Positions 7,914 to 64,000 of a stretch of DNA of 64,000 nucleotides are shown here, one piece after another (the first letter of the stretch is position 1; each line of letters opens with the position of its first letter). Made by a program: the position numbers and the translations under genes. This stretch comes from Patescibacteria group bacterium. Its GTDB lineage: Bacteria > Patescibacteriota > Minisyncoccia > Minisyncoccales > Staskawiczbacteraceae. The notes below the pieces were generated by a model. That model had not been told where the DNA came from. It did not search any database and saw only the letters and a program-made list of their open reading frames with translations. Where the stretch lies: NCBI GenBank assembly GCA_038065715.1, contig JBBTQL010000004.1, positions 35,693 through 99,692 on the forward strand. Reading direction: 5' to 3'.

Positions 7914-8748
7914 TTTTATTAAAAATATTATTTTTTATTTCTTTTAAGTCGGCTCCCGTTTTCATTAAAAGCCCGGCAGTTTCAAAAATTTCCTGCGTTG
8001 TTTTTGAATTTCCAAAATTTTCTGTGTAAATTGCCAGTCCTGCCAAAAAGCAGTTGGCAGCCTGTTTTTTTACCCCGTTAGAAAGCCCATCTTTTGAGGG
8101 TTCCTTATTGGATGGGTCGTATGGCCCCGGTTGCTCAAGCTTTCTATCGGGGTTTACAAGATTTAACGCCATCTCTGACAAAGAATAATCTCTTATTATG
8201 TTTATTCTACCAAAGTTTTGGTTTTTTGTCCCGACTTCGTCGAGGATGCTCGATGGCGAAGCCATCGGCACACTTTCACTATCTATATTTAAAATAAGAG
8301 AATCCAGTAAAAACCCATAAGAGTTAAGCTTGCCAGCCAATTCAGTTTTAAAATCTTTTATTCCTAAAGTTATTGTAAGGTCTGGTTTTGTTTCTGAAAA
8401 ATAAAATAAGAGGTTTTCTTTTTTTATATTTCCCCTGTCAATCATTAAATGAATTTTTAATCCTTCTTCATTTTTTTCGTAGTAAACCTGCGAGATTTCA
8501 GCTGTTTTTTGAGGAATTGAAATCACAAAGTTTTTTGGATATGAAATATGGCCTAAGCTAGGCAATAAAAATCGAAATTTTTCTGGAAATTCTTCTATTA
8601 TTAAGTTTACATTTTTATTTAATTCTTTTAAAGTATAAAAAAGAGCCAAAGCAACTGGAATGCTTTCGCCATTTGGGTTATCATTTGGAATAATGCAGAT
8701 ATTTTTTGCTTCAGAAATTAATTGCTTTGCTTCTTGCGGTATTTCCAT
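7906..8748 (-). CDS. DHH/NrnA-like phosphoesterase homolog with degenerate catalytic motif
   Basis: 280 aa; N-terminus ICIIPNDNPNGESIPVALALFYTLKE parallels NrnA HRNPDGDAIGSxLAL but His/Asp replaced; overlaps upstream ATPase gene by 8 nt; contains GC-rich hairpin insert at 8229-8268. Confidence 0.45.
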   Translation of the reverse strand: MEIPQEAKQLISEAKNICIIPNDNPNGESIPVALALFYTLKELNKNVNLIIEEFPEKFRFLLPSLGHISYPKNFVISIPQKTAEISQVYYEKNEEGLKIHLMIDRGNIKKENLLFYFSETKPDLTITLGIKDFKTELAGKLNSYGFLLDSLILNIDSESVPMASPSSILDEVGTKNQNFGRINIIRDYSLSEMALNLVNPDRKLEQPGPYDPSNKEPSKDGLSNGVKKQAANCFLAGLAIYTENFGNSKTTQEIFETAGLLMKTGADLKEIKNNIFNKNE

Positions 8749-21181: not shown

Positions 21182-21787
21182 ATGATAGCATTTTTATCGG
21201 GTAAAATTTTATTAAAAAAGGACAAGTTTATCATTCTTGAAGCAGCTGGCGTTGGCTACAAAGTTTTTTTAAATCAGCAAACCCTATCCCGACTCGATCG
21301 AGGATCCTCGACGACTTCGTCGTCGGGATTAAAATTATCAGAAATAGGGCAGGATGTAAAGCTATTTTGCTTCCAAAATATAAAAGAAGATGCTTCGGAT
21401 TTATATGGGTTTTTAAGTTATGACGAGCTTGATTTTTTTGAGGTGCTAAACGATATTCATGGCGTAGGGCCAAAAGCTGCTTTGGAAATTTCTGTGTTAG
21501 GCCCCTTAGAAAAAATTAAGGACAGAATTTTAGCGCAGGACGAAAAAATATTTGAAGGAATTCCCGGAATTGGTTCAAAAAGGGCGTCGTCAATTATTTT
21601 AGAATTGACCGGAAAAATAATGGCGAAGTCCGCCTTTGCTAAAGCTTCGCCAGACGAAGCAGAAACCGCTTTAACCCAGCTTGGTTTTTCAAAACAGCAA
21701 GCAAAGGATGCCCTGGCTCGCGTGCCTGTTGCTGTTAAAAATTCTGAAGACAGAATAAAATTAGCGCTTAAAAATTTAGGAAAATAA
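21182..21787 (+). CDS. ruvA: Holliday junction branch migration protein RuvA
   Basis: MIAFLSGKILLKKDKFIILEAAGVGYKVF N-terminus, HhH GVGPKAALEI, C-terminal domain III; true start ATG 21182 (ORF-track start 21098 lies in GC-rich non-coding element); in-frame GC hairpin insert 21286-21329. Confidence 0.85.
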   Translation: MIAFLSGKILLKKDKFIILEAAGVGYKVFLNQQTLSRLDRGSSTTSSSGLKLSEIGQDVKLFCFQNIKEDASDLYGFLSYDELDFFEVLNDIHGVGPKAALEISVLGPLEKIKDRILAQDEKIFEGIPGIGSKRASSIILELTGKIMAKSAFAKASPDEAETALTQLGFSKQQAKDALARVPVAVKNSEDRIKLALKNLGK

Positions 21788-22748: not shown

Positions 22749-22788
22749 TGCTACCATTATTTAAAACTTTGTGTTAGATTGGGTAAAT

Positions 22789-24039
22789 ATGAGGATAAAA
22801 GAAGCAGTTAAAAAAATATTAGGCAGAAATTTGTTGGGTTTTTATCATTATGGCATGGCTTTTTTGGGAGCTGTGATTTTTGGTTTTCCATCTAAAAATT
22901 TAACTGTTATAGGGGTTACAGGCACCAGCGGTAAATCAACTACTTCTGATTTTATCACAAGAATTTTAGAAGAACCCTTCGACGGGGCCCAGGGCAGGTC
23001 TGGCAATAAGGTGGCTTCAATTTCAACAATAAGATTTAAAATTGCAGAAAAAGAATGGGAAAATAAATATAAAATGACAATGCCCGGCCGTTTTGTTATT
23101 CAAAAGTTTTTAAGGCAGGCAAAAAAAGCAGGATGCAAATTTGTGGTTTTAGAAGTTACTTCGCAAGGCATTGAACAATATCGCCATAAATTTATAAATT
23201 TTGATACAGCTGTTTTTACTAATTTGTCGCCAGAGCATATTGAAAGCCATGGCAGTTTTGAAAATTACAGAAACGCAAAACTAAAACTATTTCGAGCAAC
23301 AAAAAACATCCATATTATAAATACTGATGACGCAAATTCAAAATATTTTTGGAATATTCCGGCAAAACAAAAAATTGGATTTTCAGCCAAAGATGCGCAA
23401 AACGCTAATTTAAAATTAAATTTAATTGGAGACTTTAATATTTTAAACGCCTTAGCGGCAATTTCTGCGGCAAAGGCATATGGCATTGATTTTAGCATTT
23501 GTAAAAGGGCGCTGGAAAAGGCCAAAGGAATTTCTGGCAGAATGGAAGTGATTCAAAAAGAGCCATTCAAAGTTATTGTTGACTATGCTCATACTCCAGA
23601 ACAACTCGAAAGTGTCTATAAGGCACTTTCTCAAAACCCAAAACCTCAAACTCCAAACCCCAAACTTATTTGTGTGCTTGGAAGTTGCGGCGGGGGAAGG
23701 GATAAATGGAAAAGGACTGTTTTAGGAGAAATTGCAAATAAATATTGCGACAAAATATTTATAACCAATGAAGATCCATATGATGAAAACCCCAACCAGA
23801 TTTTATCTGAAATAAAATCTGGAATTATCAATTCTCAATTTCCAATTTCCAATTTATATGAAATTTTAGACCGTAAAGAGGCAATTAAAACTGCAATAAA
23901 ATTAGCAAAATCAGATGATATTGTTATAATCACTGGCAAGGGTTCAGAATCCTGGATGTGCATAGCAAACGGTAAAAAAATCCCCTGGGACGACAGGCAA
24001 ATCGCTAAAGATGCGTTGGGGCTCCAAACCTTGACATAG
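22789..24039 (+). CDS. Mur ligase family protein (MurE/MurF-like UDP-N-acetylmuramoyl peptide ligase)
   Basis: P-loop GVTGTSGKSTT; Mur ligase middle and C-terminal domains; in-frame inserts at 22977-22994 (GC hairpin) and 23828-23855 (heptamer repeat). Confidence 0.75.
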   Translation: MRIKEAVKKILGRNLLGFYHYGMAFLGAVIFGFPSKNLTVIGVTGTSGKSTTSDFITRILEEPFDGAQGRSGNKVASISTIRFKIAEKEWENKYKMTMPGRFVIQKFLRQAKKAGCKFVVLEVTSQGIEQYRHKFINFDTAVFTNLSPEHIESHGSFENYRNAKLKLFRATKNIHIINTDDANSKYFWNIPAKQKIGFSAKDAQNANLKLNLIGDFNILNALAAISAAKAYGIDFSICKRALEKAKGISGRMEVIQKEPFKVIVDYAHTPEQLESVYKALSQNPKPQTPNPKLICVLGSCGGGRDKWKRTVLGEIANKYCDKIFITNEDPYDENPNQILSEIKSGIINSQFPISNLYEILDRKEAIKTAIKLAKSDDIVIITGKGSESWMCIANGKKIPWDDRQIAKDALGLQTLT

Positions 24040-24218
24040 ATGCTTTAATATGATATGATTAATAATATAGCTCTTTTTTATTGTTACTTGCGAAATTGGC
24101 AGTTATAGCCAAAAGCTACTGAATTATATCGGTATCTTCTGGCTATGACTGCTATGTCGGTACGTCAAGCAGAAACCAGCCTGTCATAATTGGCGGGCAA
24201 AACAGAAAGGAGATTGTC

Positions 24219-24878
24219 ATGGCTGTGCAAGTCATTGGCGATCTATATGTGGAGTTGGATGGGAAGTTGGCGGAGATTAAGCGGCAAATGAGGCAGCAGG
24301 GAGGCTATCCGTTTGACCCGGAGAAATTAAACAAGTTTCTCCAACTAGCTGTCGAGGGCAGGTTCAACGACAACCGGTGCTGGTGCGAGAAGGAAGGAGT
24401 GATCTACTTTGAGGTCACCTCTGACGGCACGACTGGACCCCAATGGATTGAGCGTCTGGAGAAGAAGGGTATCCAGCTCTCCAAGTGGGCCAAGGACGTC
24501 CTGCTGTCTCCGGACTTCAAGCCGACCAACGGCGTGACCACCGAGATCGCTGTCCTCAAGGGCGCGCTTTTTATGGACAATGATCGCATCACGTCTAAGA
24601 TCCGCGCTGAGGCCGACAAGCGCAAGCTCGTCAAGCCCGAAGCCGAACTCGGTTGCCTTATCCGCGACACGTTCACGGACGAGGAAATCGAAGCCATGGG
24701 TCTTGTGTGGATCGTGGCGTTCCACGAGCCCATCAAGGACTCTGACGGCGATCCGACGTTGCTCGGTGCGCGTCGCCTTGGCGATGGCCGTTGGCTGCGC
24801 GCGTGCTGCGGCCTGCCCGACCGCAGGTGGCTTCGCGACCGTGGCTTTGCCTTCGCCGTCTCGCAAGTATCTTCGTAA
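24219..24878 (+). CDS. DGR target protein (variable C-terminus, probable C-type lectin-like fold)
   Basis: 219 aa; ~60% GC in 33% GC genome; AAAGGAG RBS; C-terminal ...GARRLGDGRWLRACCGLPDRRWLRDRGFAFAVSQVSS encoded by VR. Confidence 0.7.
   Translation: MAVQVIGDLYVELDGKLAEIKRQMRQQGGYPFDPEKLNKFLQLAVEGRFNDNRCWCEKEGVIYFEVTSDGTTGPQWIERLEKKGIQLSKWAKDVLLSPDFKPTNGVTTEIAVLKGALFMDNDRITSKIRAEADKRKLVKPEAELGCLIRDTFTDEEIEAMGLVWIVAFHEPIKDSDGDPTLLGARRLGDGRWLRACCGLPDRRWLRDRGFAFAVSQVSS
24741..24866 (+). other. DGR variable region VR1
   Basis: 126 nt aligning 1:1 with TR1 25208-25333; 22 of 23 mismatches fall at TR adenines. Confidence 0.8.
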
Positions 24879-25207
24879 GTCCTTTGGGCTTGAGCCTTTG
24901 CTCTAGCCCTTGGATCCTCTGCCCTTTGCATTTCCTCACGGACTTGCACTGGGCAGATTTTTTTTGCTAAAATATAAATGGTAATAGGTGAATCTTGCGG
25001 GAGATCAAGGTTTCCCGCGGCCGAATCCAGTATTCGTATGCTGAGAGCGTTTGCGATTAAGGTTGCAAACGGAGGGCATACGAATTACTTTCAAAAAAGA
25101 AGATACTTGGCGTGGGAAACTAGGGCATTACGATGCCGAATTCGATACAGCCCTGTGATCGTAAAACTACTTCAAGGGGCAGTGGCATAGATGGTTTCTT
25201 GCGTATT

Positions 25208-25333
25208 TCTGACGGCGATCCGAACTTGCTCAGTGCGAATCGCAATGACGATGGCCATTGGCTGAACGCGTACTACGACAAGCCCGACAACAGGTGGAAT
25301 CGCGACAATGGCTTTGCCTTCGCCGTCTCGCAA
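25208..25333 (+). other. DGR template repeat TR1 (non-coding)
   Basis: Adenine-rich (AAC-rich) near-copy of VR1; followed by diverged IMH-like end; preceded by conserved CAAGGGGCAGTGGCATAGATGG element shared with DGR-2. Confidence 0.8.
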
Positions 25334-25339
25334 CTCTCT

Positions 25340-25699
25340 TCATTTCTCTCCTTGCTTAGGAGAGTTTTGTTTAATAATTTGTCCCGACCAACCACCGAGC
25401 ATTTTGCCAATTTCATCTAGTTTCAATGATAGAGCAATATATTTTTTGTTATCCAATGATTTTGTTTCCCAAAGAATCATTAAAAATATTTTTAACGTAT
25501 CGACCTTTCTAATTGCTAAACGTACATAGGACAATTTTTCTGATTGCCCAAGAAAACTTGCAGTCACTATTGCCTCTATTGCTTCAACAAAAAGTTTATC
25601 AATTTTTTCACCAAGAGAATATTTATGTATTTTTGGTATAATTAAATAGTGTTGGTACCAAAAAAGATAAGCTTCTTTCAACTTTTGCAAAACAGGCAA
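25340..25699 (-). CDS. Avd-like accessory variability determinant (four-helix-bundle family)
   Basis: ~120 aa from TTG 25699; paralog of 63274-63642; C-terminal ...KLDEIGKMLGGW motif; antisense to TR and RT. Confidence 0.55.
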   Translation of the reverse strand: MPVLQKLKEAYLFWYQHYLIIPKIHKYSLGEKIDKLFVEAIEAIVTASFLGQSEKLSYVRLAIRKVDTLKIFLMILWETKSLDNKKYIALSLKLDEIGKMLGGWSGQIIKQNSPKQGEK

Positions 25700-25739
25700 C
25701 AGTCTGGGGGGGGGGATTAAAAGCTGAGTTATTTTGATT

Positions 25740-26726
25740 ATGAAAATTACTTTGCAACATAAATACGAAGACATCATAAGCGTTGAGAATATTTTGGAAG
25801 CATGGCAAGAGTTTCTTCTCGGCAAAAGAAACAAGCCCGATGTTCAAGAATTTTCTCTCTGTCTGATGAATAATGTTTTTAATTTGCACAACGACTTATC
25901 CAATCATACCTACAAACACGGAGGCTATCAACAATTTAAAATTAACGACCCAAAGCCAAGAACAATCCACAAAGCCAGCGTAAAAGACAGATTATTGCAC
26001 CACGCAGTATATCGTATATTATACCCGTTTTTTGATAAAAAGTTTATTGCAGACTCTTTCTCTTGCAGAAACAACAAAGGCACTCATAAAGCATTAAACA
26101 AATTCAGGGAGTTCAGCTATATTGTTTCCAAAAACAACACAAACACCTGCTGGATTTTAAAATGCGACATAAAAAAGTTTTTTGCCAGCGTTGATCAGCA
26201 GATACTAATTAAAATTTTAGAAAAATATATTTCAGAAAAAGATATTATCAACTTTCTAAAAGAAATAATTTTTGGTTTTAAACCCAATGGTTTGCCTCTC
26301 GGTAATTTGACTTCCCAGTTGTTCGCAAATGTTTATCTGAATGAATTTGACCAGTTTGTAAAACACAAATTGAAAGTAAAATACTATATTAGGTATGCCG
26401 ATGACTTCGTAATTTTATCAGAGAACAAAAATTATTTAAAAAACATAATTCCAGAGCTAAAATATTATTTAAAAAACAATTTAAAACTGGAAATTCATCC
26501 AAATAAAATTTTTATTAAAACATTGAATTCTGGCGTTGATTTTTTAGGCTGGATTAATTTTACAGATCATAGAGTTTTAAGGACAAAAACTAAAAACAGA
26601 ATATTAAAGAGAATAAAAAATAATTCAAGTATTGAAACATTAAATTCTTATTCGGGTTTGTTAAAACATGGAAATATGAACAAAATGATTAAGAAATTAT
26701 TTAAGGAAACGGAGATTGCTTTTTAA
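25740..26726 (+). CDS. DGR reverse transcriptase
   Basis: RT motifs incl. YADD and DGR-diagnostic LGNLTSQLFANVYL (IGxxxSQ); ~328 aa. Confidence 0.85.
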   Translation: MKITLQHKYEDIISVENILEAWQEFLLGKRNKPDVQEFSLCLMNNVFNLHNDLSNHTYKHGGYQQFKINDPKPRTIHKASVKDRLLHHAVYRILYPFFDKKFIADSFSCRNNKGTHKALNKFREFSYIVSKNNTNTCWILKCDIKKFFASVDQQILIKILEKYISEKDIINFLKEIIFGFKPNGLPLGNLTSQLFANVYLNEFDQFVKHKLKVKYYIRYADDFVILSENKNYLKNIIPELKYYLKNNLKLEIHPNKIFIKTLNSGVDFLGWINFTDHRVLRTKTKNRILKRIKNNSSIETLNSYSGLLKHGNMNKMIKKLFKETEIAF

Positions 26727-27038: not shown

Positions 27039-27983
27039 ATGAAAGTTATTGATATTCAAAATTTATTTATTAAGCTTGGAATGGAAGCCGATTTTCGCGG
27101 CAAAGACGGAGTGCAGAGTTTTTTGGATAACAAAAAGAAAAAGTTTGAAAAATTATCTTTACAGGAAAAAGAAGAATTTGATAAAGACGCTTTAGAAAAT
27201 CCTTATTTGGATTCAGGCATTTATAATATTTCAGACGATAAAGAAATAAAAAAAGTTTTAGTTGGGATTGATATTTCGCCCGCAGAAATTTTAATAGCAA
27301 AAGAGCTTGGCGGCATTGATTTAATTATCGCCCACCATCCAATAGGCAAGGGTTTGGCGCAGTTGGCAGATGTTATGAGCCTGCAGTGCGATGTTTTAAG
27401 TTATTACGGAGTTCCAATAAATATATCAGAAGGCTTAATGAAAGAAAGAATTTCAGAAGTGGCGCGAGGAGTTAATGCTTCAAACCACCAAAGAACAGTT
27501 GACGCGGCGAAACTTATGAATGTTAATTTAATGAATTCCCATACTCCAGCCGATAATTCTGCGGCAAAATTTTTAAGGGGTTTAATTGAAAACAAAAAAA
27601 TAGACAGGGTTTCAGACCTGATAAATATATTAAAAGAAATACCAGAATATAAAGAAGCTATGAAAATTGGAGTTGGCCCTAAAATTTTTGTGGGCACGCC
27701 CGAAAATCATTGCGGAAAAATTGCTTTATCTGAAATAACAGGAGGCACTGAAGGCTCTCCAAAGCTTTATGAAAAAATGGCCCAGGCTGGCATTGGAACT
27801 GTTGTTGGAATGCATATTTCAGAAGAGCATAAGAAAGAAGCAGAAAACGCCCACATTAATATTGTGATAGCTGGCCACATTTCTTCAGATTCGCTTGGCA
27901 TGAATTTATTAATGGACGAGCTGGAAAAACAGGGAATTGAAATTGTGCCTTGCTCTGGGTTCGCAAGATTTTCAAGAGTTTAA
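27039..27983 (+). CDS. Nif3-like dinuclear metal center protein
   Basis: IDLIIAHHPIGKG motif and length consistent with NIF3/YqfO family. Confidence 0.6.
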   Translation: MKVIDIQNLFIKLGMEADFRGKDGVQSFLDNKKKKFEKLSLQEKEEFDKDALENPYLDSGIYNISDDKEIKKVLVGIDISPAEILIAKELGGIDLIIAHHPIGKGLAQLADVMSLQCDVLSYYGVPINISEGLMKERISEVARGVNASNHQRTVDAAKLMNVNLMNSHTPADNSAAKFLRGLIENKKIDRVSDLINILKEIPEYKEAMKIGVGPKIFVGTPENHCGKIALSEITGGTEGSPKLYEKMAQAGIGTVVGMHISEEHKKEAENAHINIVIAGHISSDSLGMNLLMDELEKQGIEIVPCSGFARFSRV

Positions 27984-34527: not shown

Positions 34528-34664
34528 AATTTAAAAATTTGACACAGAGTTGAGGGGGGGGTATTATAAGATAATATCAAAAATATCAAATTTTTAGTTT
34601 TTAATTTCTAATTTTTTAAATAATTTTTCAATTTTAGAATTTTAAAATTAAAATTTAATAGCAT

Positions 34665-36359
34665 ATGAGAATAAAATATTTTTTAATAACAGCTGTTTTA
34701 GCAACATCAATTTTAGGTTCTGGCGGTTTTGTGAAAGCGCAAACCACAGACAATTCAGCGTTAATTGCCCAACTTCAAGCGCAAATTCAGGCAATTCTGC
34801 AACAAATAGCGCAACTGCAAGCTCAGCAAGATACAAACGCGGTCCAAAACTCTGCGTCAGAAAATGCTAATTCAGACAGTTCAAAAGCAAACTGGTGCTA
34901 TAATTTCAAACAAAACTTGTGGATTGGTAAAAATGGCAGGCCTGTTGAGGCTTTACAGATTGCTTTGTCTAAAGAAGGTTTGTTTGACGCCAGTTTAATT
35001 AAGAATCCATGGAGATTTGGCCCCTCTACCTTATTGGCAGTAATCAAGTTTCAGAATAAATATAGCATAAAACCAACAGGATATGTGGGCTTCGCCACAA
35101 ACAAAAAACTAAACGAACTCTACGGCTGCAAAACCACCGAGTCATCAGTTACAGTTACTTCGCCCAACGGCGGAGAGGAGTGGGTGCGAGGGTCAACTCA
35201 TAATGTTACGTGGACGTCTCAAAATGTGGAAAGAGATGTTTATCTTACAATTAAAAACTTTGACACAAACGTCATAAAGAGCATTTCTTTAGCGCCTGTT
35301 TCGCCGGTCAGCGATTCTGCTTCTTTTAATATTCCGTCTGATTTGGCCGTGGGAAACAAATATAAGGTTAGAGTGGGAAATAGCGATGTTTCAGATTACA
35401 GCGACAATTATTTTAGCATTCTTGATACAACAACTTCTTCAAATGCGTCTATTACCGTCACTTCGCCCAACGGCGGAGAAACATGGCAAGTCGGCGGAAC
35501 GCATAATATCACATGGTTCAGTCAGGGTGCAAATGCTATAAATTATAATGTTCAAATCGGAATTATTGATAATCGCTATAGTACGGAATCAGGAGATAGA
35601 TCCGAAAAAATTATAGTAAATTCTATTCCTAATACTGGCAGTTATTCTTGGACGGTGCCTCAATCTATTGGAACAATGAATCTGAATGATACTATCCAAC
35701 CGGTTTATAAAATTGTTGTACATTCTCGAAGTGATGCGGTTACAGGAGTGGCTCTTGGAGACTCGAGCGATAATCCTTTCAGTATTGTGGCGCCGACGGT
35801 TGCCTGTACGTCATTTACCTATTCAGCTTGGGGGGCTTGCCAGTCAAACAATACCCAAACAAGAACAGTTGTATCATCCTCGCCAACTGGATGCGCAGGA
35901 GGCAGCCCAATATTATCGCAATCTTGCGGAGTAGTAAAGACTGTATTCAGCAATAGCCAAATTTATCTTGACGCCAATAGCAAAGTAGCGCCCTTGTCTT
36001 GCACTAATTATAAGTGTAACGGCTCTTTTGGCTATTGCTCTGCTTCTTGCGGAGGAGGATATTATCCAGATAATTTAACAGCCCAGAAATTGTGCCAGAA
36101 AAAAGGTTACGATGCAGCTTCAAGTTTCACCATAAAAAATGGTTTTTATGCATCTTGCAGCGATAACTATATGTGGAAATGGAATGGGGTTAGCGCTGAA
36201 TATGTTTGGTCTTGCGTTAAAAATAGCGGTATAGACACTGTCACTTGCTCAAAAACTGTTGGGACTACGGCAAGCATTGATTCTCAAGATCAATTAGCGT
36301 CTATTTCTAGCGCAATACAAAGAATAGCTCAACAAATTCAAGCATTATTTGAAAGGTAA
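34665..36359 (+). CDS. secreted protein: Q-rich coiled coil, peptidoglycan-binding-like domain, Ser/Thr-rich SPNGGE-W repeats, Cys-rich C-terminus
   Basis: Signal peptide; PG_binding-like ...ALQIALSKEGLF...GPSTLLAVIKFQ; two TVTSPNGGE(E/T)W..G..HN.TW repeats. Confidence 0.55.
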   Translation: MRIKYFLITAVLATSILGSGGFVKAQTTDNSALIAQLQAQIQAILQQIAQLQAQQDTNAVQNSASENANSDSSKANWCYNFKQNLWIGKNGRPVEALQIALSKEGLFDASLIKNPWRFGPSTLLAVIKFQNKYSIKPTGYVGFATNKKLNELYGCKTTESSVTVTSPNGGEEWVRGSTHNVTWTSQNVERDVYLTIKNFDTNVIKSISLAPVSPVSDSASFNIPSDLAVGNKYKVRVGNSDVSDYSDNYFSILDTTTSSNASITVTSPNGGETWQVGGTHNITWFSQGANAINYNVQIGIIDNRYSTESGDRSEKIIVNSIPNTGSYSWTVPQSIGTMNLNDTIQPVYKIVVHSRSDAVTGVALGDSSDNPFSIVAPTVACTSFTYSAWGACQSNNTQTRTVVSSSPTGCAGGSPILSQSCGVVKTVFSNSQIYLDANSKVAPLSCTNYKCNGSFGYCSASCGGGYYPDNLTAQKLCQKKGYDAASSFTIKNGFYASCSDNYMWKWNGVSAEYVWSCVKNSGIDTVTCSKTVGTTASIDSQDQLASISSAIQRIAQQIQALFER

Positions 36360-38045: not shown

Positions 38046-38403
38046 ATTATTTTAGTGGAAGCGCCGGGGTCGAACCCGGGTCCAGAAATTTTTTAAAAAT
38101 AAATCTACAAATTTATCTTGCTTTGTTGTTTGGATATTAAATAAGAAGCAAGAAAAATGTTTAATATCCTAATTCTCGTAAATCTCGACAGTTCCCCGAG
38201 AAATAAAACTGCCTATCCTGAAAATATAACACCCTCGGTCCATTTATCAGGAGTCAATGGCGAGGATGCAGCATTAAGCTAAAGCTAGTGCTGGTTGCCT
38301 ATTAAATAAATTAGCAATTATGTTTTTTCTATAAGTTTAACCAGGTTATAGAAAACTGGATTTGCATATTTTTAATGAAACATCTGTCAAAACTTACGCT
38401 CCC
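38046..38403 (-). ncRNA. ssrA: tmRNA (SsrA)
   Basis: Minus-strand 5' GGGAGCG pairs with 3' CGCUUCC-A; tRNA-like T arm GGTTCGACCCC; internal tag frame GCT AAT TTA TTT AAT AGG CAA CCA GCA CTA GCT TTA GCT TAA (ANLFNRQPALALA*); starts 2 nt after smpB stop. Confidence 0.75.
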
Positions 38404-39830: not shown

Positions 39831-41482
39831 TAAAAGAAGAAATAAAAAAAATAGTGGAAAACTCAATTAAAAACCTGCAAAAACAGGGCGCATTTTTAAA
39901 ATTAAAAATGCCAGAAATTTTAATTGAGCGGCCTAAAGAAAAAATACGCGGTGACTATTCAACCAACATTGCCTTTGTAATTGGAAAAGATGTTTTGAAA
40001 AATCCATTTGAAACGGCATTGCTTTTGAAAACAGAAATTGTCTCGCTTTGCGAGATCTCGCGCAGCGAGAAAAAACAAAAATCTGTAATAGAAAAAGTTG
40101 AGGTAGTGGGAGGGTTTATTAATTTTTTTGTTGCTGACGATTATTTTAAAAATCAGCTGCAAATTATTTTAAAACAAAAAAACAAATTTGGAGATTTAAA
40201 ACTTGGTAAAAGTCAAAAAGTAAACATAGAATTTATTTCTGCAAATCCAACAGGGCCGTTAACTTTAGGAAACGGCAGAGGAGGATTTTGTGGCGATGTT
40301 TTGGCTAATGTTTTAGAAAAAGCAGGATATAAAGTTGAAAGAGAATATTATATTAACAATACCGGAGCTCAAATTAAAAAACTTGGGCATTCTGTAATTG
40401 GAGATGCAGAAGCTGTTTACAAAGGAAAATATATTATTGATTTAAGAAACAAAGTTAAGGGAGATGACCCCGAGAAAGTTGGAGAAAAATCGGCAAAAAT
40501 TATTTTAGAAAAAATGATAAAGCCGTCTGTAAAAAAAATGGGAATTAAATTTGACACATGGTTTTCAGAAAAAACTCTCTATAAAAATAAAGAAGTAGAT
40601 AAAACAATACAAGAATTGGCTAAAAAAGGGTTCACCTATGAAAGCGAAGACGCTGTGTGGTTTAAATCTAAAGAATTGGGCGATGACAAAGACAGGGTTT
40701 TGGTGAGAGCCGACGGAATTAAAACATATTTTGCTTCAGATATTGCTTATTTTAAAAATAAATTTAAAAGAGGGTTTGGTAAACTTATTATGTTTTTGGG
40801 AGCCGACCACTATGGATATGTTCCGAGGCTAAAAGCTGCCTCGCTTGCTTTTGGTTTTAAAAAAGACAGTATTGATGCTATTGTTATGCAGTTGGTGCGG
40901 CTTTATGAAAAAGGCAAAGAAGTAAGAATGGCAAAAAGGACTGGTATTTATGTAACAATAGATGAGTTAATTGGCGAGGTTAGTTTGGATGTTGCCAGAT
41001 TTTTCTTTTTAATGATAAGCCCTAATACCCACATGAATTTTAATTTGGATTTAGCAAAAGAAAAATCAGAGAAAAATCCGGTTTTTAAAGTGCAATATGC
41101 GCATGCCCGAATTTGCTCAATTTTCCGAAAATTTGGAAATTTCAAATTTTCCCGATTTCATCGAGGATCCTCAATGGCAAAGCCATCGGGACAAATTTCA
41201 AATTTAAAATTATTAAATGAGCCGAGCGAGTTAGGGTTAATTAGAGAATTAATTAAACTTCCAGAAATTATTGAAGAGATAGCTAAAGATTATCAAGTTC
41301 AAAGACTACCGCAATACGCAATGGATTTAACTGATGCATTCCATAGATTTTATGAAAACTGTAAAGTCCTGAGCGAAGTCGAAGGATTGCGTGATGCCCG
41401 CTTGTCTCTTGTTATGGCAACAAAAATTGTTTTAAAAAATACATTAGACTTAATGGGAATATCTGCTCCTGAAAAAATGTGA
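39827..41482 (+). CDS. argS: arginine--tRNA ligase
   Basis: SANPTGPLTLGNGRGG class I motif; C-terminal DALK-type anticodon-binding domain; in-frame AAATTT-type repeat plus GC hairpin insert 41108-41190. Confidence 0.9.
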   Translation: MIKEEIKKIVENSIKNLQKQGAFLKLKMPEILIERPKEKIRGDYSTNIAFVIGKDVLKNPFETALLLKTEIVSLCEISRSEKKQKSVIEKVEVVGGFINFFVADDYFKNQLQIILKQKNKFGDLKLGKSQKVNIEFISANPTGPLTLGNGRGGFCGDVLANVLEKAGYKVEREYYINNTGAQIKKLGHSVIGDAEAVYKGKYIIDLRNKVKGDDPEKVGEKSAKIILEKMIKPSVKKMGIKFDTWFSEKTLYKNKEVDKTIQELAKKGFTYESEDAVWFKSKELGDDKDRVLVRADGIKTYFASDIAYFKNKFKRGFGKLIMFLGADHYGYVPRLKAASLAFGFKKDSIDAIVMQLVRLYEKGKEVRMAKRTGIYVTIDELIGEVSLDVARFFFLMISPNTHMNFNLDLAKEKSEKNPVFKVQYAHARICSIFRKFGNFKFSRFHRGSSMAKPSGQISNLKLLNEPSELGLIRELIKLPEIIEEIAKDYQVQRLPQYAMDLTDAFHRFYENCKVLSEVEGLRDARLSLVMATKIVLKNTLDLMGISAPEKM

Positions 41483-59467: not shown

Positions 59468-62014
59468 ATGAATATGGCAAAATATAATCCTCAAAAAATT
59501 GAGAAGAAATGGCAAGAGGCTTGGTATAAATCAAGCATTTTTAAAGCTAAAAACGGGTCTAAAAATAAGAAATTTTACCTTTTAGTGGAGTTTCCTTATC
59601 CTTCGGGAGACGGGCTTCATGTCGGCCATTGCCGAAGCTATACTGCCTTAGATATTATTGCCAGAAAAAAAAGAATGCAGGGATTTAATGTTTTATTCCC
59701 AATGGGCTGGGACGCTTTTGGATTGCCAACTGAAAATTATGCCATAAAAAAGGGAGTACACCCGTCTGTTGTGACAAAAAAGAATACAGATAACTTTAGG
59801 CGGCAGATGAAAAGTTTGGGGCTTTCTTTTGACTGGAGCCGAGAAATAAATACCACAGACCCAAAATATTATAAATGGACGCAGTGGATTTTTTTGCAGT
59901 TATTTAAAAATAACTTGGCTTATAAAGATAAAATTGCAATCAACTGGTGCCCTAAAGATAAAATTGGATTGGCAAATGAAGAAGTGATAAATGGCAAATG
60001 CGAAAGATGCGGCGCAAAAGTTGAAAAAAGAGATAAAGAGCAATGGATGATAAAAATTACAAAATATGCCGACAGATTAATTGAAGATTTAAATTTAGTT
60101 GATTATTTAGAAAAAATAAAAATACAGCAGAAAGATTGGATAGGCGAGTCACATGGAGCGTTGATAAAATTTTCGTTAGAAGGAAGCGAAGAATTCATAG
60201 AAGTTTTTACAACCAGAATAGACACAATATTTTCTGGCACGTTTTTAATTTTATCTCCAGGACACAATTTTATAGATAAATATAAAAATAAAATTGAAAA
60301 CATTGATGAAGTTTTAAAATATAGAGAAACCGCAAAAAATACTTCTGATATAGATAGAACTAATCAAGATAAAGATATTACAGGAGTGGAATTAAAAGGA
60401 ATTACAGTAAAAAATCCTGCCACAAATGAAGAAATGCCAGTTTGGACAGCTGATTTTGTTTTAGAGCAATACGGAACAGGAGTCGTTTTTGCTGATGCCC
60501 ATGATAAAAGAGATTTTAAAATGGCAAAAAAATATGGGATACCTTTGCGAACTTCAATAAAACCAGAAAATGAACTATCGGCGCAAAAAGCAAAAAATTT
60601 GGAAGAATGTTTTGAGGGCGAAGGCGCTCTTTATAATTCTATGCATTTTGACGGCTTAACTTCTTCTGAAGCCCGACCTAAAATAATTTCTTGGTTAAGG
60701 GAAAAAGGATATGCGGAAAACAAAATAAGCTATAAGCTTCGAGATTGGGTTTTTTCGCGCCAGCATTATTGGGGCGAGCCAATACCAATGATTTTTTGCG
60801 TAAAATGCGGTTGGCAGGCTGTTTTAGAAAAAAATCTGCCCGTTGAATTGCCTAAGGTAAAAAAATATCAGCCAACAGATACAGGCGAATCTCCTCTTTC
60901 TGCTATTGAAAAATGGGTAAATGTAAAATGTCCAAAATGCAAAGGACCGGCAAAAAGAGAAACAGACACAATGCCTAATTGGGCAGGTTCAAACTGGTAT
61001 TACTTGGCATATACTATGCCAAAAATTTCAAATTTCAAATTTCAAATTTCAAATTCTGCGAAAGAATTTTCGCAGTGGATGCCAGTTGACTGGTATAATG
61101 GCGGAATGGAGCACACAACTTTGCATTTATTGTATTCAAGATTTATTTTTAAATTTTTATGGGATATTGGAGCTGTTCCAAAAATAATTGGGGCAGAACC
61201 ATATAAAAAAAGAACTTCGCATGGAATGATTTTAGGCGAAGGGGGAATTAAAATGTCAAAGTCAAAGGGAAATGTAATAAATCCAGATTCAGTTGTGAAA
61301 CAATATGGAGCCGACACCTTAAGAGTTTACGAAATGTTTATCGGGCCTTTTGAGCAAATGATTCCTTGGGATATAAAGGGGGTTGTTGGTTCGCGCAGGT
61401 TTTTAGAAAAAATTTACAACTTAGTTTTGAAGAAGGCAATTCCGGCAAAAATCCCGACGGTCTCGCCGTCGAGGACCCGCGACGAAGTCGGGGCAGAAGA
61501 AAATTTTAAAAAACTTTTGCATAAAACAATAAAAAAGGTTGGTGACGATATTGAGGCAATGAAATTTAACACAGCAGTGAGCTCTTTAATGGAATTTGTA
61601 AATGCATGGAGCATTGCTGAAAATAGTTTAGATAAACCAGCCTCCGATAAAGGCTACGGCTTGGCGAAGAAAGATTTGCAAGAATTTTTAAAGATTTTGT
61701 CGCCTTTTGCCCCGCATTTGTCAGAAGAGCTTTGGCAAAGAGCTGGATTTAAAGGTTTGTGCTGCGCTCAAAAATGGCCTAAGTATGACGAAAAATTAAT
61801 TGAAGAAAAAAACATATTGCTTATTGTGCAAATTAACGGTAAAGTTAGAGATAAAATAGAAGTTAACGCAGGCATTACTCAAAAACAAGCTGAAGAAATA
61901 GTTTTAAAATTAGAAAAAATTAAAAACCGTATAACTAATATTAAAGAAGTGGAAAAAGTTGTTTTTGTGCCAGGTAAGTTAATAAATTTTGTGACTATTG
62001 ACAAGGATAAGTAA
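59468..62014 (+). CDS. leuS: leucine--tRNA ligase
   Basis: HVGHCRSY (HIGH), KMSKSKGN; 848 aa; in-frame (AAATTTC)4 array 61023-61057 and GC hairpin insert 61453-61494. Confidence 0.9.
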   Translation: MNMAKYNPQKIEKKWQEAWYKSSIFKAKNGSKNKKFYLLVEFPYPSGDGLHVGHCRSYTALDIIARKKRMQGFNVLFPMGWDAFGLPTENYAIKKGVHPSVVTKKNTDNFRRQMKSLGLSFDWSREINTTDPKYYKWTQWIFLQLFKNNLAYKDKIAINWCPKDKIGLANEEVINGKCERCGAKVEKRDKEQWMIKITKYADRLIEDLNLVDYLEKIKIQQKDWIGESHGALIKFSLEGSEEFIEVFTTRIDTIFSGTFLILSPGHNFIDKYKNKIENIDEVLKYRETAKNTSDIDRTNQDKDITGVELKGITVKNPATNEEMPVWTADFVLEQYGTGVVFADAHDKRDFKMAKKYGIPLRTSIKPENELSAQKAKNLEECFEGEGALYNSMHFDGLTSSEARPKIISWLREKGYAENKISYKLRDWVFSRQHYWGEPIPMIFCVKCGWQAVLEKNLPVELPKVKKYQPTDTGESPLSAIEKWVNVKCPKCKGPAKRETDTMPNWAGSNWYYLAYTMPKISNFKFQISNSAKEFSQWMPVDWYNGGMEHTTLHLLYSRFIFKFLWDIGAVPKIIGAEPYKKRTSHGMILGEGGIKMSKSKGNVINPDSVVKQYGADTLRVYEMFIGPFEQMIPWDIKGVVGSRRFLEKIYNLVLKKAIPAKIPTVSPSRTRDEVGAEENFKKLLHKTIKKVGDDIEAMKFNTAVSSLMEFVNAWSIAENSLDKPASDKGYGLAKKDLQEFLKILSPFAPHLSEELWQRAGFKGLCCAQKWPKYDEKLIEEKNILLIVQINGKVRDKIEVNAGITQKQAEEIVLKLEKIKNRITNIKEVEKVVFVPGKLINFVTIDKDK

Positions 62015-62201
62015 ATATGCTATGATTAATAATACAGCTCTTTTTAAGTGAAAATACTTGCAAAAACAGCGGTTATAGCCAAAAGCGACCGAAGGTCGTC
62101 CTGAGCAGAGCCGAAGGACAACAAATCGGTATTTTCTGGCTATGACTGCTATGGTAGTAGTCAAGCGAAATGGTGAAACCCTAAAGAAAGGAAAAAGCAC
62201 C

Positions 62202-62822
62202 ATGTCGTACGACAAGCAGACAGCCGAGTTCATCGCCACTGTGGTGCAGAACATCCCCAAAATGTCAGGCGATGTTATGCAGGGTTGGATTGGGAATCCA
62301 AAAGCGCTACAGAAGCTCCTCTTGGGTCTATGCCCTTCTGTCAATGAGCCCAAGGAAGTCTCGTTGCTCCGCAAGCTCGCCAGCGTTCAGGTGGAGGGCG
62401 TTGCAAGATTCGTCGTTGACGACGATACCCTGCAGGCGGCCAACATCGGCTGGACTGGCGACAACTTCAAAAAGTTTTTCGCCAAGAAGGTTGAGGAGGA
62501 TGTTCCCGCCTGCGCTATCGCTGTTCACCGGCTGGAACGCGCGTCTTCGGATGCGCCCATTCTCACCGAACTCGGTGACCGCGCCGAAATCAGCCTCGCG
62601 CACCTGTTCGAGCTGATCAAAAAGCAGTCCAAGGGCGAAACTGGCCAGTTGTTGGTTAATGGTTATGCGAATGTCGCATATGTCCGTGGAACCGATGGCA
62701 ACCTCTGGGCTGTGCTTGCGGCCTGGCGCTCTTACTGCGGTTGCTGGGGTGTCGAGGCTGACTCGGTTGAGGATCCGGACGGGTGGCGCGGTAGCCGCCG
62801 GATTCTCTCCCGCGATTCTTGA
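62202..62822 (+). CDS. DGR target protein 2 (variable C-terminus)
   Basis: ~206 aa from ATG 62202 after AAAGGAAAAAG RBS (the 62142 start lies in conserved leader); ~58% GC; C-terminal ...LWAVLAAWRSYCGCWGVEADSVEDPDGWRGSRRILSRDS in VR. Confidence 0.7.
   Translation: MSYDKQTAEFIATVVQNIPKMSGDVMQGWIGNPKALQKLLLGLCPSVNEPKEVSLLRKLASVQVEGVARFVVDDDTLQAANIGWTGDNFKKFFAKKVEEDVPACAIAVHRLERASSDAPILTELGDRAEISLAHLFELIKKQSKGETGQLLVNGYANVAYVRGTDGNLWAVLAAWRSYCGCWGVEADSVEDPDGWRGSRRILSRDS
62704..62813 (+). other. DGR variable region VR2
   Basis: 110 nt aligning with TR2; 21 mismatches, all at TR adenines. Confidence 0.8.
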
Positions 62823-63164
62823 AACTTAATCCTTTTGGGATTTTGGATCTTGAATCCTTTGAATCTATGGCTCTCTGAAACTTTGAAAAAAGTAGTAAGA
62901 GAGCCTTTTTGTTTTGTGAAAAAGTAATGTAGAATAAATCTAAGGAATGCTAAGTATGAAGGCTACGGCTTTCATAAAGCGCTCCGAAAATGTATATTGC
63001 AGAATTATTGCGGATACGTCTTCAATAAGAGTTGATATACATATTTCAAAAAAAGAAAAGAATCGGTGTGGCGTGCTGGCGGACTTTGAGGTCCCAAATA
63101 AGATACAGCCCCTAGAGTATTCAAAGGGCAGTGGCATTGATGGCGCGTTGCATATTAATTAGGG

Positions 63165-63274
63165 TCTGGGCTGTGAATGCGAACTGGAACTCTAACTACG
63201 GTTACTGGAATGTCGAGGCTAACTCGGTTGAGAATCCGAACAGGTGGAACGATAGCAACCAGATTCTCTCCCGC
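63165..63274 (+). other. DGR template repeat TR2 (non-coding)
   Basis: A-rich near-copy of VR2; upstream CAAAGGGCAGTGGCATTGATGG element conserved with DGR-1. Confidence 0.8.
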
Positions 63275-63642
63275 TACTGTTTTCTTTCTTCCGCTTTTAT
63301 CGCGGAAGTTTTGCTTATTATTCCTTTTTTCCAGCCACCGATTATCTTACCAATGCCTTCTATCTCAGCGCCAAGCGAGATATATTGTTTATTAGAAACG
63401 AGTTTTGTTTCCCATAAAAGCTGAAAGAAAAAACGCAACGAATCAATTTTGTCCGATGTCGCTTCAAGCAAAACAAGTTTTTTATTTATTGGCGTATACG
63501 TAGCTTTTCTTAATAACTCAAGAAGATCTAAAAATAAAATATCTACTTTAGTCCCGATTCCGAACCGCGCGATTCGTTCAATATTGCGATGCACTTCCAT
63601 CCACTGTTTATATATCAATTTGGATTTTTGCAAAACTGGCAA
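63274..63642 (-). CDS. Avd-like accessory variability determinant
   Basis: 122 aa; TTG start; paralog of 25340-25699; ...EIEGIGKIIGGW motif. Confidence 0.6.
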   Translation of the reverse strand: MPVLQKSKLIYKQWMEVHRNIERIARFGIGTKVDILFLDLLELLRKATYTPINKKLVLLEATSDKIDSLRFFFQLLWETKLVSNKQYISLGAEIEGIGKIIGGWKKGIISKTSAIKAEERKQ

Positions 63643-63685
63643 CAGTCTGGGGGGGATTAGAAGAATAACTATTTATATTTTGATT

Positions 63686-64000
63686 ATGAAAATTGTTTTG
63701 AAACATAAATATGAATATTTAATTAGCGTTAATAATTTATTGGAAGCGTGGACAGAATTTATCAAGGGGAAGCGCAACAAAAGCGATGTTCAGATTTTTT
63801 CATTTCATTTAATGGATAATATTTTACAACTTCATTGTGATTTAAAAAATGGCACATATAAGCATGGAGGCTATCAACAATTTAAAATCAACGACCCAAA
63901 ACCAAGGATAATTCACAAAGCCAGCGTAAAAGACAGATTATTGCACCACGCAGTATATCGTATATTATACCCGTTTTTTGATAAAAAGTTCATTGCAGAC
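63686..64000 (+). CDS. DGR reverse transcriptase, N-terminal part (3' end beyond window)
   Basis: MKIVLKHKYEYLISVNNLLEAW...KINDPKPRIIHKASVKDRLLHHAVYRILYPFFDKKFIAD nearly identical to RT at 25740. Confidence 0.8.
   Translation, partial: MKIVLKHKYEYLISVNNLLEAWTEFIKGKRNKSDVQIFSFHLMDNILQLHCDLKNGTYKHGGYQQFKINDPKPRIIHKASVKDRLLHHAVYRILYPFFDKKFIAD

Follow-up and report, generated by a model that had tools for sequence, protein, structure and literature searches.

A chromosomal diversity-generating retroelement of a Patescibacteria genome, with a conserved RNA domain directly 5' of its template repeat

Introduction

Is a 2.7 kb cassette in the genome of a Patescibacteria bacterium a complete diversity-generating retroelement (DGR), is there anything unusual about it, and how might it work? 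The cassette, DGR-1, is flanked by a Mur-ligase gene (22771-24039) on one side and a NIF3-family gene (27039-27983) on the other, in a 64 kb stretch of an AT-rich (~0.33 GC) metagenome-assembled genome (MAG); this whole stretch is called the window here, and all coordinates are positions in it. A preliminary description made from the sequence had read the cassette as a complete DGR with a target gene, a variable repeat (VR), a template repeat (TR), an antisense avd gene and a reverse transcriptase (RT), and had called its architecture and its GC-rich target unusual. The reading as a complete DGR was upheld by every test that we ran, and to judge from its sequence the locus is a genuine, complete DGR and a typical member of the type found in the Candidate Phyla Radiation (CPR). 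We are highly confident that the whole is best explained as a chromosomal CPR-type DGR with the parts target-VR, TR, antisense avd and RT, operating by the mechanism proposed below. A second element of the same type, DGR-2, lies at the end of the window.

Template and variable repeats

The repeat pair consists of the following elements.

24741-24866, plus strand: VR1, the variable repeat, coding for the last ~42 residues of the target; 9 adenines in 126 nt
25208-25333, plus strand: TR1, the template repeat, with 30 adenines
24843-24866 (TR copy 25310-25333), plus strand: 24-nt block GGCTTTGCCTTCGCCGTCTCGCAA, identical in VR and TR, beyond which their flanks diverge; a putative 3' boundary resembling the initiation of mutagenic homing (IMH) sequence

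The two 126-nt near-copies were found where they had been described, and their alignment is gapless, with an offset of 467 nt. When the mismatches were tabulated by template base, 22 were counted, 21 of them at TR adenines, so that the enrichment first reported stands and its counts of 23 and 22 do not; given 24% adenine in TR1, the binomial probability that 21 or more of the 22 would fall on this base is 1.4e-12. VR1 thus carries a substitution at 21/30 of the TR1 adenines, and the lone non-adenine mismatch is, as had been noted, a C-to-G change (24758) adjoining an A-to-C change (24757). All of the adenine-site changes are at codon position 1 or 2 of the open reading frame (ORF) 24219-24878, and the VR peptide given earlier agrees with our translation. 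The TR1 adenines are distributed over codon positions 1/2/3 as 10/19/1, seven TR1 codons are AAY and one of the 42 is capable of becoming a stop, a codon design that permits ~1e17 protein variants. The shared 3' 24-mer occurs at just these two sites in the window, with 0 expected by chance. Judged by sequence, the repeat pair, its codon design and its apparent 3' boundary are those of a DGR.

Template-directed variation in related loci

We scanned JGI metagenome contigs with TR1 in which every adenine, as well as the one non-adenine mismatch position, was replaced by N. A single contig was returned, Ga0182027_10153815 (L081), whose TR equals TR1 at 126/126 positions and whose VR differs from VR1 at 21 positions, of which 20 are TR adenines; divergence is 12% in the adjacent target sequence and 10% in the VR-TR spacer. 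Because the template is invariant and the copy varies at adenine sites, L081 represents the outcome expected of a DGR. The same pattern holds over 56 related loci, in which 1025 adenine-site changes were counted versus 78 other mismatches. Where a TR adenine is changed in these loci, it is represented in VR by G in 56% of the cases, by T in 24% and by C in 20%, a G bias as seen after selection, and 41% of the TR adenines are unchanged in VR.

Compared with window positions 24030-26310, L081 is a mosaic: the 3' two-thirds of the target through the TR are 88-100% identical (~93% overall), avd is 68-88% and the RT 57-77% identical, and the first ~60 target codons are unrelated. The target-TR module therefore appears, from these sequences, to have been exchanged or conserved independently of the RT-avd module.

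Reverse transcriptase and Avd

The protein machinery is encoded downstream of the TR.

25740-26726, plus strand: DGR RT, 328 aa, matching RVT_1 and bRT; alternative TTG start at 25734
25340-25699, minus strand: accessory gene avd (119 aa, TTG start) in its likely true extent; matches PF22296 and NF033474
25903-25931, minus strand: promoter-like site TTGATA-17-TATGAT directed toward avd, in the RT 5' coding region; a consensus match only

The RT ORF (25734/25740-26726) contains both YADD and the motif LGNLTSQLFANVY, as had been described, and matches RVT_1 with an E value of 1e-24. Its closest solved relative is bRT of Bordetella phage BPP-1 (8ub7, E 7.6e-41), with group II intron RTs (2e-17) and retron RTs (~1e-17) far behind. 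In the alignment with 8ub7, PLGNLTSQLFANVY corresponds to PIGSLTSQLFANVY and RYADD to RYMDD, the SQLFANVY and YxDD motifs being aligned. By sequence, then, the enzyme has the (I/L)GxxxSQ...ANxY motif and the YxDD of the DGR lineage, and it is consistent with membership of DGR clade 2 of Roux et al. 2021 (PMC8144416), which is confined to Patescibacteria and has targets lacking recognisable domains. The antisense ORF between TR and RT had been taken for Avd, and a profile search bore this out with matches to NF033474 and to PF22296 (bAvd; E 2e-11, 44.7 bits, over the cut-off of 40). These matches indicate that the Avd component of a DGR is present.

Target gene and its protein

The target gene and its flanking elements are listed here in order.

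24031-24059, plus strand: near-consensus sigma-70 promoter TTGACA-17-TATGAT, TG-extended, preceding the target gene
24102-24149, plus strand: hairpin GTTATAGCCAAAAG...CTTCTGGCTATGAC in the 5' leader of the target mRNA, kept in DGR-2 (62074-62150) and several related loci
24219-24878, plus strand: target gene, 219 aa, with an AlphaFold (AF2) model and no sequence family
24879-24935, plus strand: short CTTnG / CCTTGG units repeated every 7-8 nt, located right after the target stop codon
24919-24967, plus strand: stem CTGCCC...GGGCAG followed by a T-run, resembling a target mRNA terminator

The target protein is identical to the NCBI entry AAB352_00715. Its sequence had no match in Pfam, NCBIfam or the PDB sequences, and its >1600 homologues are annotated as hypothetical throughout; fold comparison alone was informative. 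The AF2 model, built from 74 homologues (predicted local distance difference test score, pLDDT, 89.8), consists of an N-terminal helical hairpin and a C-type-lectin fold, corroborating the C-type-lectin-like VR that had been proposed. When the homologues are aligned, the columns of the VR region that lack conservation are those of the TR-adenine codons. The model thus predicts what a DGR is expected to encode, a variable protein displaying the VR on a C-type-lectin fold. Inspection of the N-terminus revealed no hydrophobic segment.

The promoter region includes 53 nt that are 81% identical to the matching DGR-2 site (61998-62050). In the leader hairpin, compensatory changes are apparent by eye only, the leader alignment being too gappy for a formal covariation count. 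The CTTnG array occurs clade-wide at the same position (~45 loci), where CCCTT and CCTTT are 50-fold enriched. Each array comprises 4-7 nnnCTTnG units, many of which form mini-hairpins (e.g. GTCC-TTT-GGAC), ahead of the target terminator. It is a candidate target-site element or a candidate set of mini-hairpins in the 3' untranslated region and, by analogy, could stand in for the GC-rich cruciform, which in BPP-1 helps the target to be recognised. At the target-terminator position, a GC stem with a T-run is present in most aligned loci.

Gene order in the clade

The first survey of CPR/Patescibacteria DGRs is reportedly that of Paul et al. 2017. We scanned species-representative genomes for relatives of the RT and found >551, of which 80 loci were fetched, almost all titled Patescibacteria or unnamed MAGs. 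A TR/VR pair was found in 55 of these 80, mainly those with enough upstream DNA, and the two pairs of the window bring the number to 57. The TR-(avd)-RT layout with avd antisense is present in 57/57, at nearly constant spacings: the VR and TR starts are 370-560 nt apart, and ~400 nt separate the TR end from the RT start. This is architecture B3 of Wu et al. 2018 (PMC5758913), to which 90% of CPR DGRs belong, and since all 57 loci share it as well, an avd antisense to TR and RT is not the peculiarity that the preliminary description saw in it. To judge from its sequence DGR-1 is itself of the B3 type, with avd on the opposite strand. Structurally we see no difference from the published CPR DGRs (PMC5758913, PMC8144416): gene order, orientation and host group are the same, and here, too, the target is small, with no recognisable domain, transmembrane segment or signal peptide.

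The second element of the window has the following parts.

61998-64000: DGR-2, of the same type, with the promoter copy at 61998-62050
62202-62822: DGR-2 target, without BLASTP similarity to the DGR-1 target
62704-62820 and 63165-63281: VR2 and TR2, with 24 mismatches, 21 of them at A
63274-63642, minus strand: avd2; a G7 tract is at 63649-63655
start ~63687: DGR-2 RT, truncated where the window ends; contig L089 has it complete (326 aa)

The two elements are 78% identical over the first 300 nt of a repeat that spans both RT starts.

A structured RNA domain directly 5' of the template repeat

Between the target gene and avd, we found the following elements in and around the TR.

24965-24973, plus strand: extended -10 element TGCTAAAAT (TGnTAnAAT in the clade consensus), which may be the TR RNA promoter
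24985-25207, plus strand: structured RNA domain of five helices, ~225 nt, directly 5' of the TR, supported by covariation
24997-25005/25010-25018, plus strand: helix H1 of the RNA domain
25048-25058/25061-25071, plus strand: helix H2 of the RNA domain
25110-25121/25193-25204, plus strand: helix H3 of the RNA domain
25125-25128/25133-25136, plus strand: helix H4 of the RNA domain
25150-25158/25172-25180, plus strand: helix H5 of the RNA domain
25093-25106, plus strand: A-rich segment AAAAAAGAAGATAC, predicted to pair at long range with the TR 3' flank at 25334-25346
25334-25346, plus strand: TR 3' flank CTCTCTTCATTTC, IMH*-like, the predicted partner in the long-range pairing
25346-25372, plus strand: hairpin and T-run CTCTCCttgctTAGGAGAG TTTTGTTT, resembling an intrinsic terminator, within the 3' end of the antisense avd ORF

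The helices were obtained with RNAalifold and with explicit pair counts across the related loci. In these counts, 95-96% of the cells are paired versus 31-55% when the partners are slid, 37 of the 41 pairs show compensatory changes, and none of 500 shuffles matched the observed values. The domain lies directly 5' of the TR in every related locus (L001-L081), the DGR-2 copy being at 63031-63170. A covariance model of its 3' half (R1) gave 71 matches in 613 kb, one per locus, always on the TR strand and none outside DGRs; they take in many loci outside the set from which R1 was built, and exactly two are in the window. In a search of the window against Rfam 15 at the gathering score, the RNA domain had no match, the RT-associated motifs of Weinberg et al. 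2017 included, nor does it fall into any of the families RT-1 to RT-19, of which RT-10 is the BPP-1 spacer; at E values up to 10, the interval 24000-25800 gave only three unrelated families, all sub-threshold. When the TR RNA of DGR-1 is folded alone by minimum free energy, the H1 and H3 strands pair in an alternative way, and covariation favours separate H1 and H3 helices.

The predicted long-range duplexes have a mean energy of -6.56 kcal/mol for cognate versus -4.67 kcal/mol for non-cognate combinations, and the cognate mean was not attained in any of 10,000 permutations. By inspection and pattern scan, the post-TR hairpin with its T-run is present in nearly all loci, with differing stem sequences; RNAalifold returned no structure for the TR 3' flank because the hairpin loops were misaligned. 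From the extended -10 element, the conserved RNA continuing into the TR, the long-range pairing and the terminator after the TR, we infer a discrete TR RNA.

Proposed mechanism and comparison with known systems

In the mechanism that we propose, a strong promoter would drive expression of a small C-type-lectin-fold protein without a signal peptide, the last ~42 residues of which come from VR1. A separate transcript of ~390 nt would start at the extended -10 element, fold into the five-helix domain, run through TR1 and end at the hairpin terminator that lies within the 3' end of the antisense avd. Part of the 5' domain would pair with the flank just 3' of the TR and so bring the start site of the cDNA into the structured domain, a role that, by analogy, would resemble that of the BPP-1 3' spacer RNA on the other side of the TR. 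The RT and Avd would then copy the TR into cDNA with misincorporation opposite adenines, and the cDNA would replace VR1 as far as the shared 24-nt block.

DGR-1 resembles the BPP-1 element (mtd-VR, avd, TR, spacer RNA, brt) in its homologous RT with shared motifs, its Avd partner, the adenine-specific transfer from TR to VR, the C-type-lectin-fold variable protein, the 3' block akin to IMH/IMH* and a non-coding RNA domain predicted to pair with the TR 3' region. It differs in that avd is antisense and located between TR and RT, the structured RNA is 5' rather than 3' of the TR, a terminator directly follows the TR, short CTTnG repeats follow the VR instead of a long GC-rich cruciform, and the element is chromosomal and cellular whereas BPP-1 is phage-borne. 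Treponema denticola TvpA and other DGR variable proteins of the C-type-lectin fold have no detectable sequence similarity to the target, which is much smaller than the TvpA-type proteins and lacks a lipoprotein or other export signal.

The poly-G tract between avd and RT

The intergenic region between the divergent avd and RT genes contains a simple-sequence tract.

25706-25715, no strand assigned: G10 homopolymer lying between the starts of avd and RT

Within 150 nt upstream of the RT, such a tract is present in 71/76 loci, 68 with a poly-G of 6-14 (mode 10) and three with (GA)n. For DGR-1, the window has 10 G, and 9 and 11 G occur in independent assemblies from the same aquifer; in one assembly pair the tract length is the sole difference over 5061 aligned bases, and two overlapping contigs of one sample have 9 G and 11 G. 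The G7 tract of DGR-2 is constant. Because the tract is kept in 71 of the 76 loci and is (GA)n in three of these, we argue that its repeat nature matters.

The porA gene of Neisseria meningitidis has a phase-variable promoter with 9-11 G between -35 and -10. The DGR tract is similar in that, in a short region between divergent genes, 8-14 G immediately precede a -10-like hexamer, and in that length variants of 9, 10 and 11 G occur in one population. It is dissimilar in that the -35 partner is unclear, that an effect on expression is hypothetical, and that the lengths could be sequencing artefacts. Slipped-strand, phase-variable control of RT and Avd expression by the G tract is, on the sequence data, a reasonable hypothesis, and the length differences may instead be homopolymer sequencing artefacts. 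In the literature covered, no paper was found that ties DGRs to such tracts. Phase variation of Avd by frameshifting in a coding poly-C tract was considered and rejected: an in-frame ATG lies upstream in only 13 of 68 loci, and the lengths are spread across all three frames. The tract is thus outside the avd reading frame.

A second G8 tract of the window fills the 17-nt spacer of a TTGACA / TATTAT promoter (34540-34568). This promoter precedes an ORF (34665-36359) with PG_binding_1 and Ig-like domains, probably a cell-surface protein, and its sequence makes it a second candidate contingency promoter of the genome.

Is DGR-1 still active?

Several observations weigh against the account given above. 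In the source population, no VR variation is on record, and the 90%-identity protein cluster of the target has a single member. The Avd match to NF033474 (DivGenRetAVD), at 61.6 bits (E 7e-17), is under the curated NCBIfam cut-off of 80. From the TR terminator to the RT start, no clear plus-strand promoter for the RT was seen. The long-range pairing involves only 5-12 bp and at DGR-1 is weak (-5.5 kcal/mol, with one mismatch). Finally, we infer the transcript boundaries and the priming site, along with the priming role of the 5' domain and the homing step, from sequence.

The lack of a VR1 variant is also what would be expected if DGR-1 were a real DGR that is now silent in this population, either switched off, for example by the poly-G length, or with VR1 fixed by selection. 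We consider this possible but rather doubtful. An exact-protein look-up found the same target protein in contigs from at least five assemblies (eight read, five shown), in which the VR is the same in all contigs because an exact protein match selects for it. The sole polymorphism over 5 kb between assemblies is the length of the G tract, the tract is conserved in the clade as described, and in another part of the window a consensus promoter has a G8 tract in its spacer. However, an assembly consensus hides minority haplotypes, so that a fixed VR consensus is compatible with activity; a difference of +/-1 in a run of 10 G could be a sequencing or PCR artefact; no convincing -35/-10 pair was seen around the DGR-1 tract; and the 7-G tract of DGR-2 is invariant. 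To judge from its sequence, DGR-1 may be active at present.

We find it quite improbable that the locus is a decaying remnant, in which the TR/VR differences would be fossils of past activity. The missing VR variation and the one non-adenine mismatch would fit this explanation, but the ORFs are all intact with their catalytic motifs present, the TR is perfectly kept between lineages whose flanks are 10-12% diverged, the RNA helices are intact at this locus and clearly under purifying selection in the clade as a whole, and both DGRs of the genome retain the full set of parts.

GC-rich targets

The GC contents of DGR-1 are 0.58 for the target, 0.56 for the TR and 0.29 for the RT, in surroundings of ~0.33-0.35, in agreement with the GC-rich target and TR reported earlier. 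At third codon positions (GC3), the target has 0.74-0.77 versus ~0.30 in the neighbouring genes. That a GC-rich whole target is unusual did not hold up: the clade means are 0.56 (target), 0.53 (TR), 0.38 (RT) and 0.43 (flanks), every locus has a higher GC in the target than in the RT (mean difference 0.18), and GC3 is 0.68 in the target versus 0.41 in the RT, being higher in the target in 48/49 loci. Since the property belongs to the whole clade, it is neither peculiar to this locus nor a sign of recent import. GC is flat along the target gene (0.52-0.56), and the four-fold sites of targets, though near saturation between species, are C-rich (C.44, G.25, T.20, A.11). Across the loci, RT GC follows that of the flanks (r 0.90) far better than target GC does (r 0.60). 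The targets have their C-rich, A-poor synonymous sites at any host GC.

Three explanations of the GC content were rejected: local conversion spreading out of the VR, because GC is flat across the gene; amino-acid composition, because GC2 has the host value and the excess sits at GC3; and a relic of recent transfer, because the four-fold sites are near saturation between species yet C-rich. The candidate causes of the GC3 excess are selection against adenines, selection for a stable, highly expressed mRNA, and GC-biased conversion in an often-recombining module.

Another reading is that a foreign GC-rich target-TR block was recently inserted, or is a chimera of the assembly, and came by chance to lie beside a resident RT of another type, such as that of a retron or group II intron. 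The sharp GC step from target to RT would fit this, as would the ~93% versus 57-77% identity of the two L081 modules, from which it follows that the modules can have separate histories. We give this reading next to no credence: a chimera is refuted by the same junctions in independent assemblies, the step recurs in every related locus with synonymous sites near saturation, so that the GC state is maintained and not recent, GC does not change across the target gene, and the RT groups with bRT, far above the group II intron and retron RTs.

In the CPR DGR literature covered, which did not include Paul et al. 2017, there is no mention of the RNA domain, the poly-G tract or the target GC3 excess; an earlier description is possible.

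Implications

As a DGR, the chromosomal CPR-type element described here is one more example beside the thousands catalogued in Patescibacteria. It is useful in being complete, in being duplicated in one genome with two targets without detectable similarity, and in having a TR-identical lineage with a different VR. The questions that it raises are how cDNA is primed with a structured RNA 5' of the template and a terminator directly after the TR, whether a simple-sequence tract makes hypermutation itself phase-variable, and why a target GC3 of ~0.68 is kept in AT-rich genomes. The RNA domain, the G tract and the synonymous GC bias are, on the sequence evidence, the parts that deserve specialist attention.

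It is possible, though less likely than not, that CPR-type DGRs have all of the following: a ~390-nt TR RNA with a 5' protein-binding/priming domain, poly-G/(GA)n-gated expression of RT and Avd, and a composition force specific to the module. If this were true, the template-then-spacer arrangement of BPP-1 would be permuted here, with a co-varying long-range helix tying it to the 3' end of the TR; a hypermutable tract would serve as a stochastic on/off switch on a targeted mutator; and a selective or conversion force particular to the target-TR module would keep its synonymous sites C-rich and A-poor.

Other features of the window

No tRNA genes were found across the 64-kb window. One other RNA gene was recognised.

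38053-38403, minus strand: tmRNA gene with the tag peptide ANLFNRQPALALA, Rfam 112 bits

A GC-rich, partly palindromic element of ~42-75 nt occurs in three copies (8226-8300, 21287-21328, 41147-41221) in AT-rich intergenic DNA. Its sequence, TCCCGA.TTCGTCGAGGAT.CTCGA...CATCGGGA, resembles REP-like repeats or terminators.

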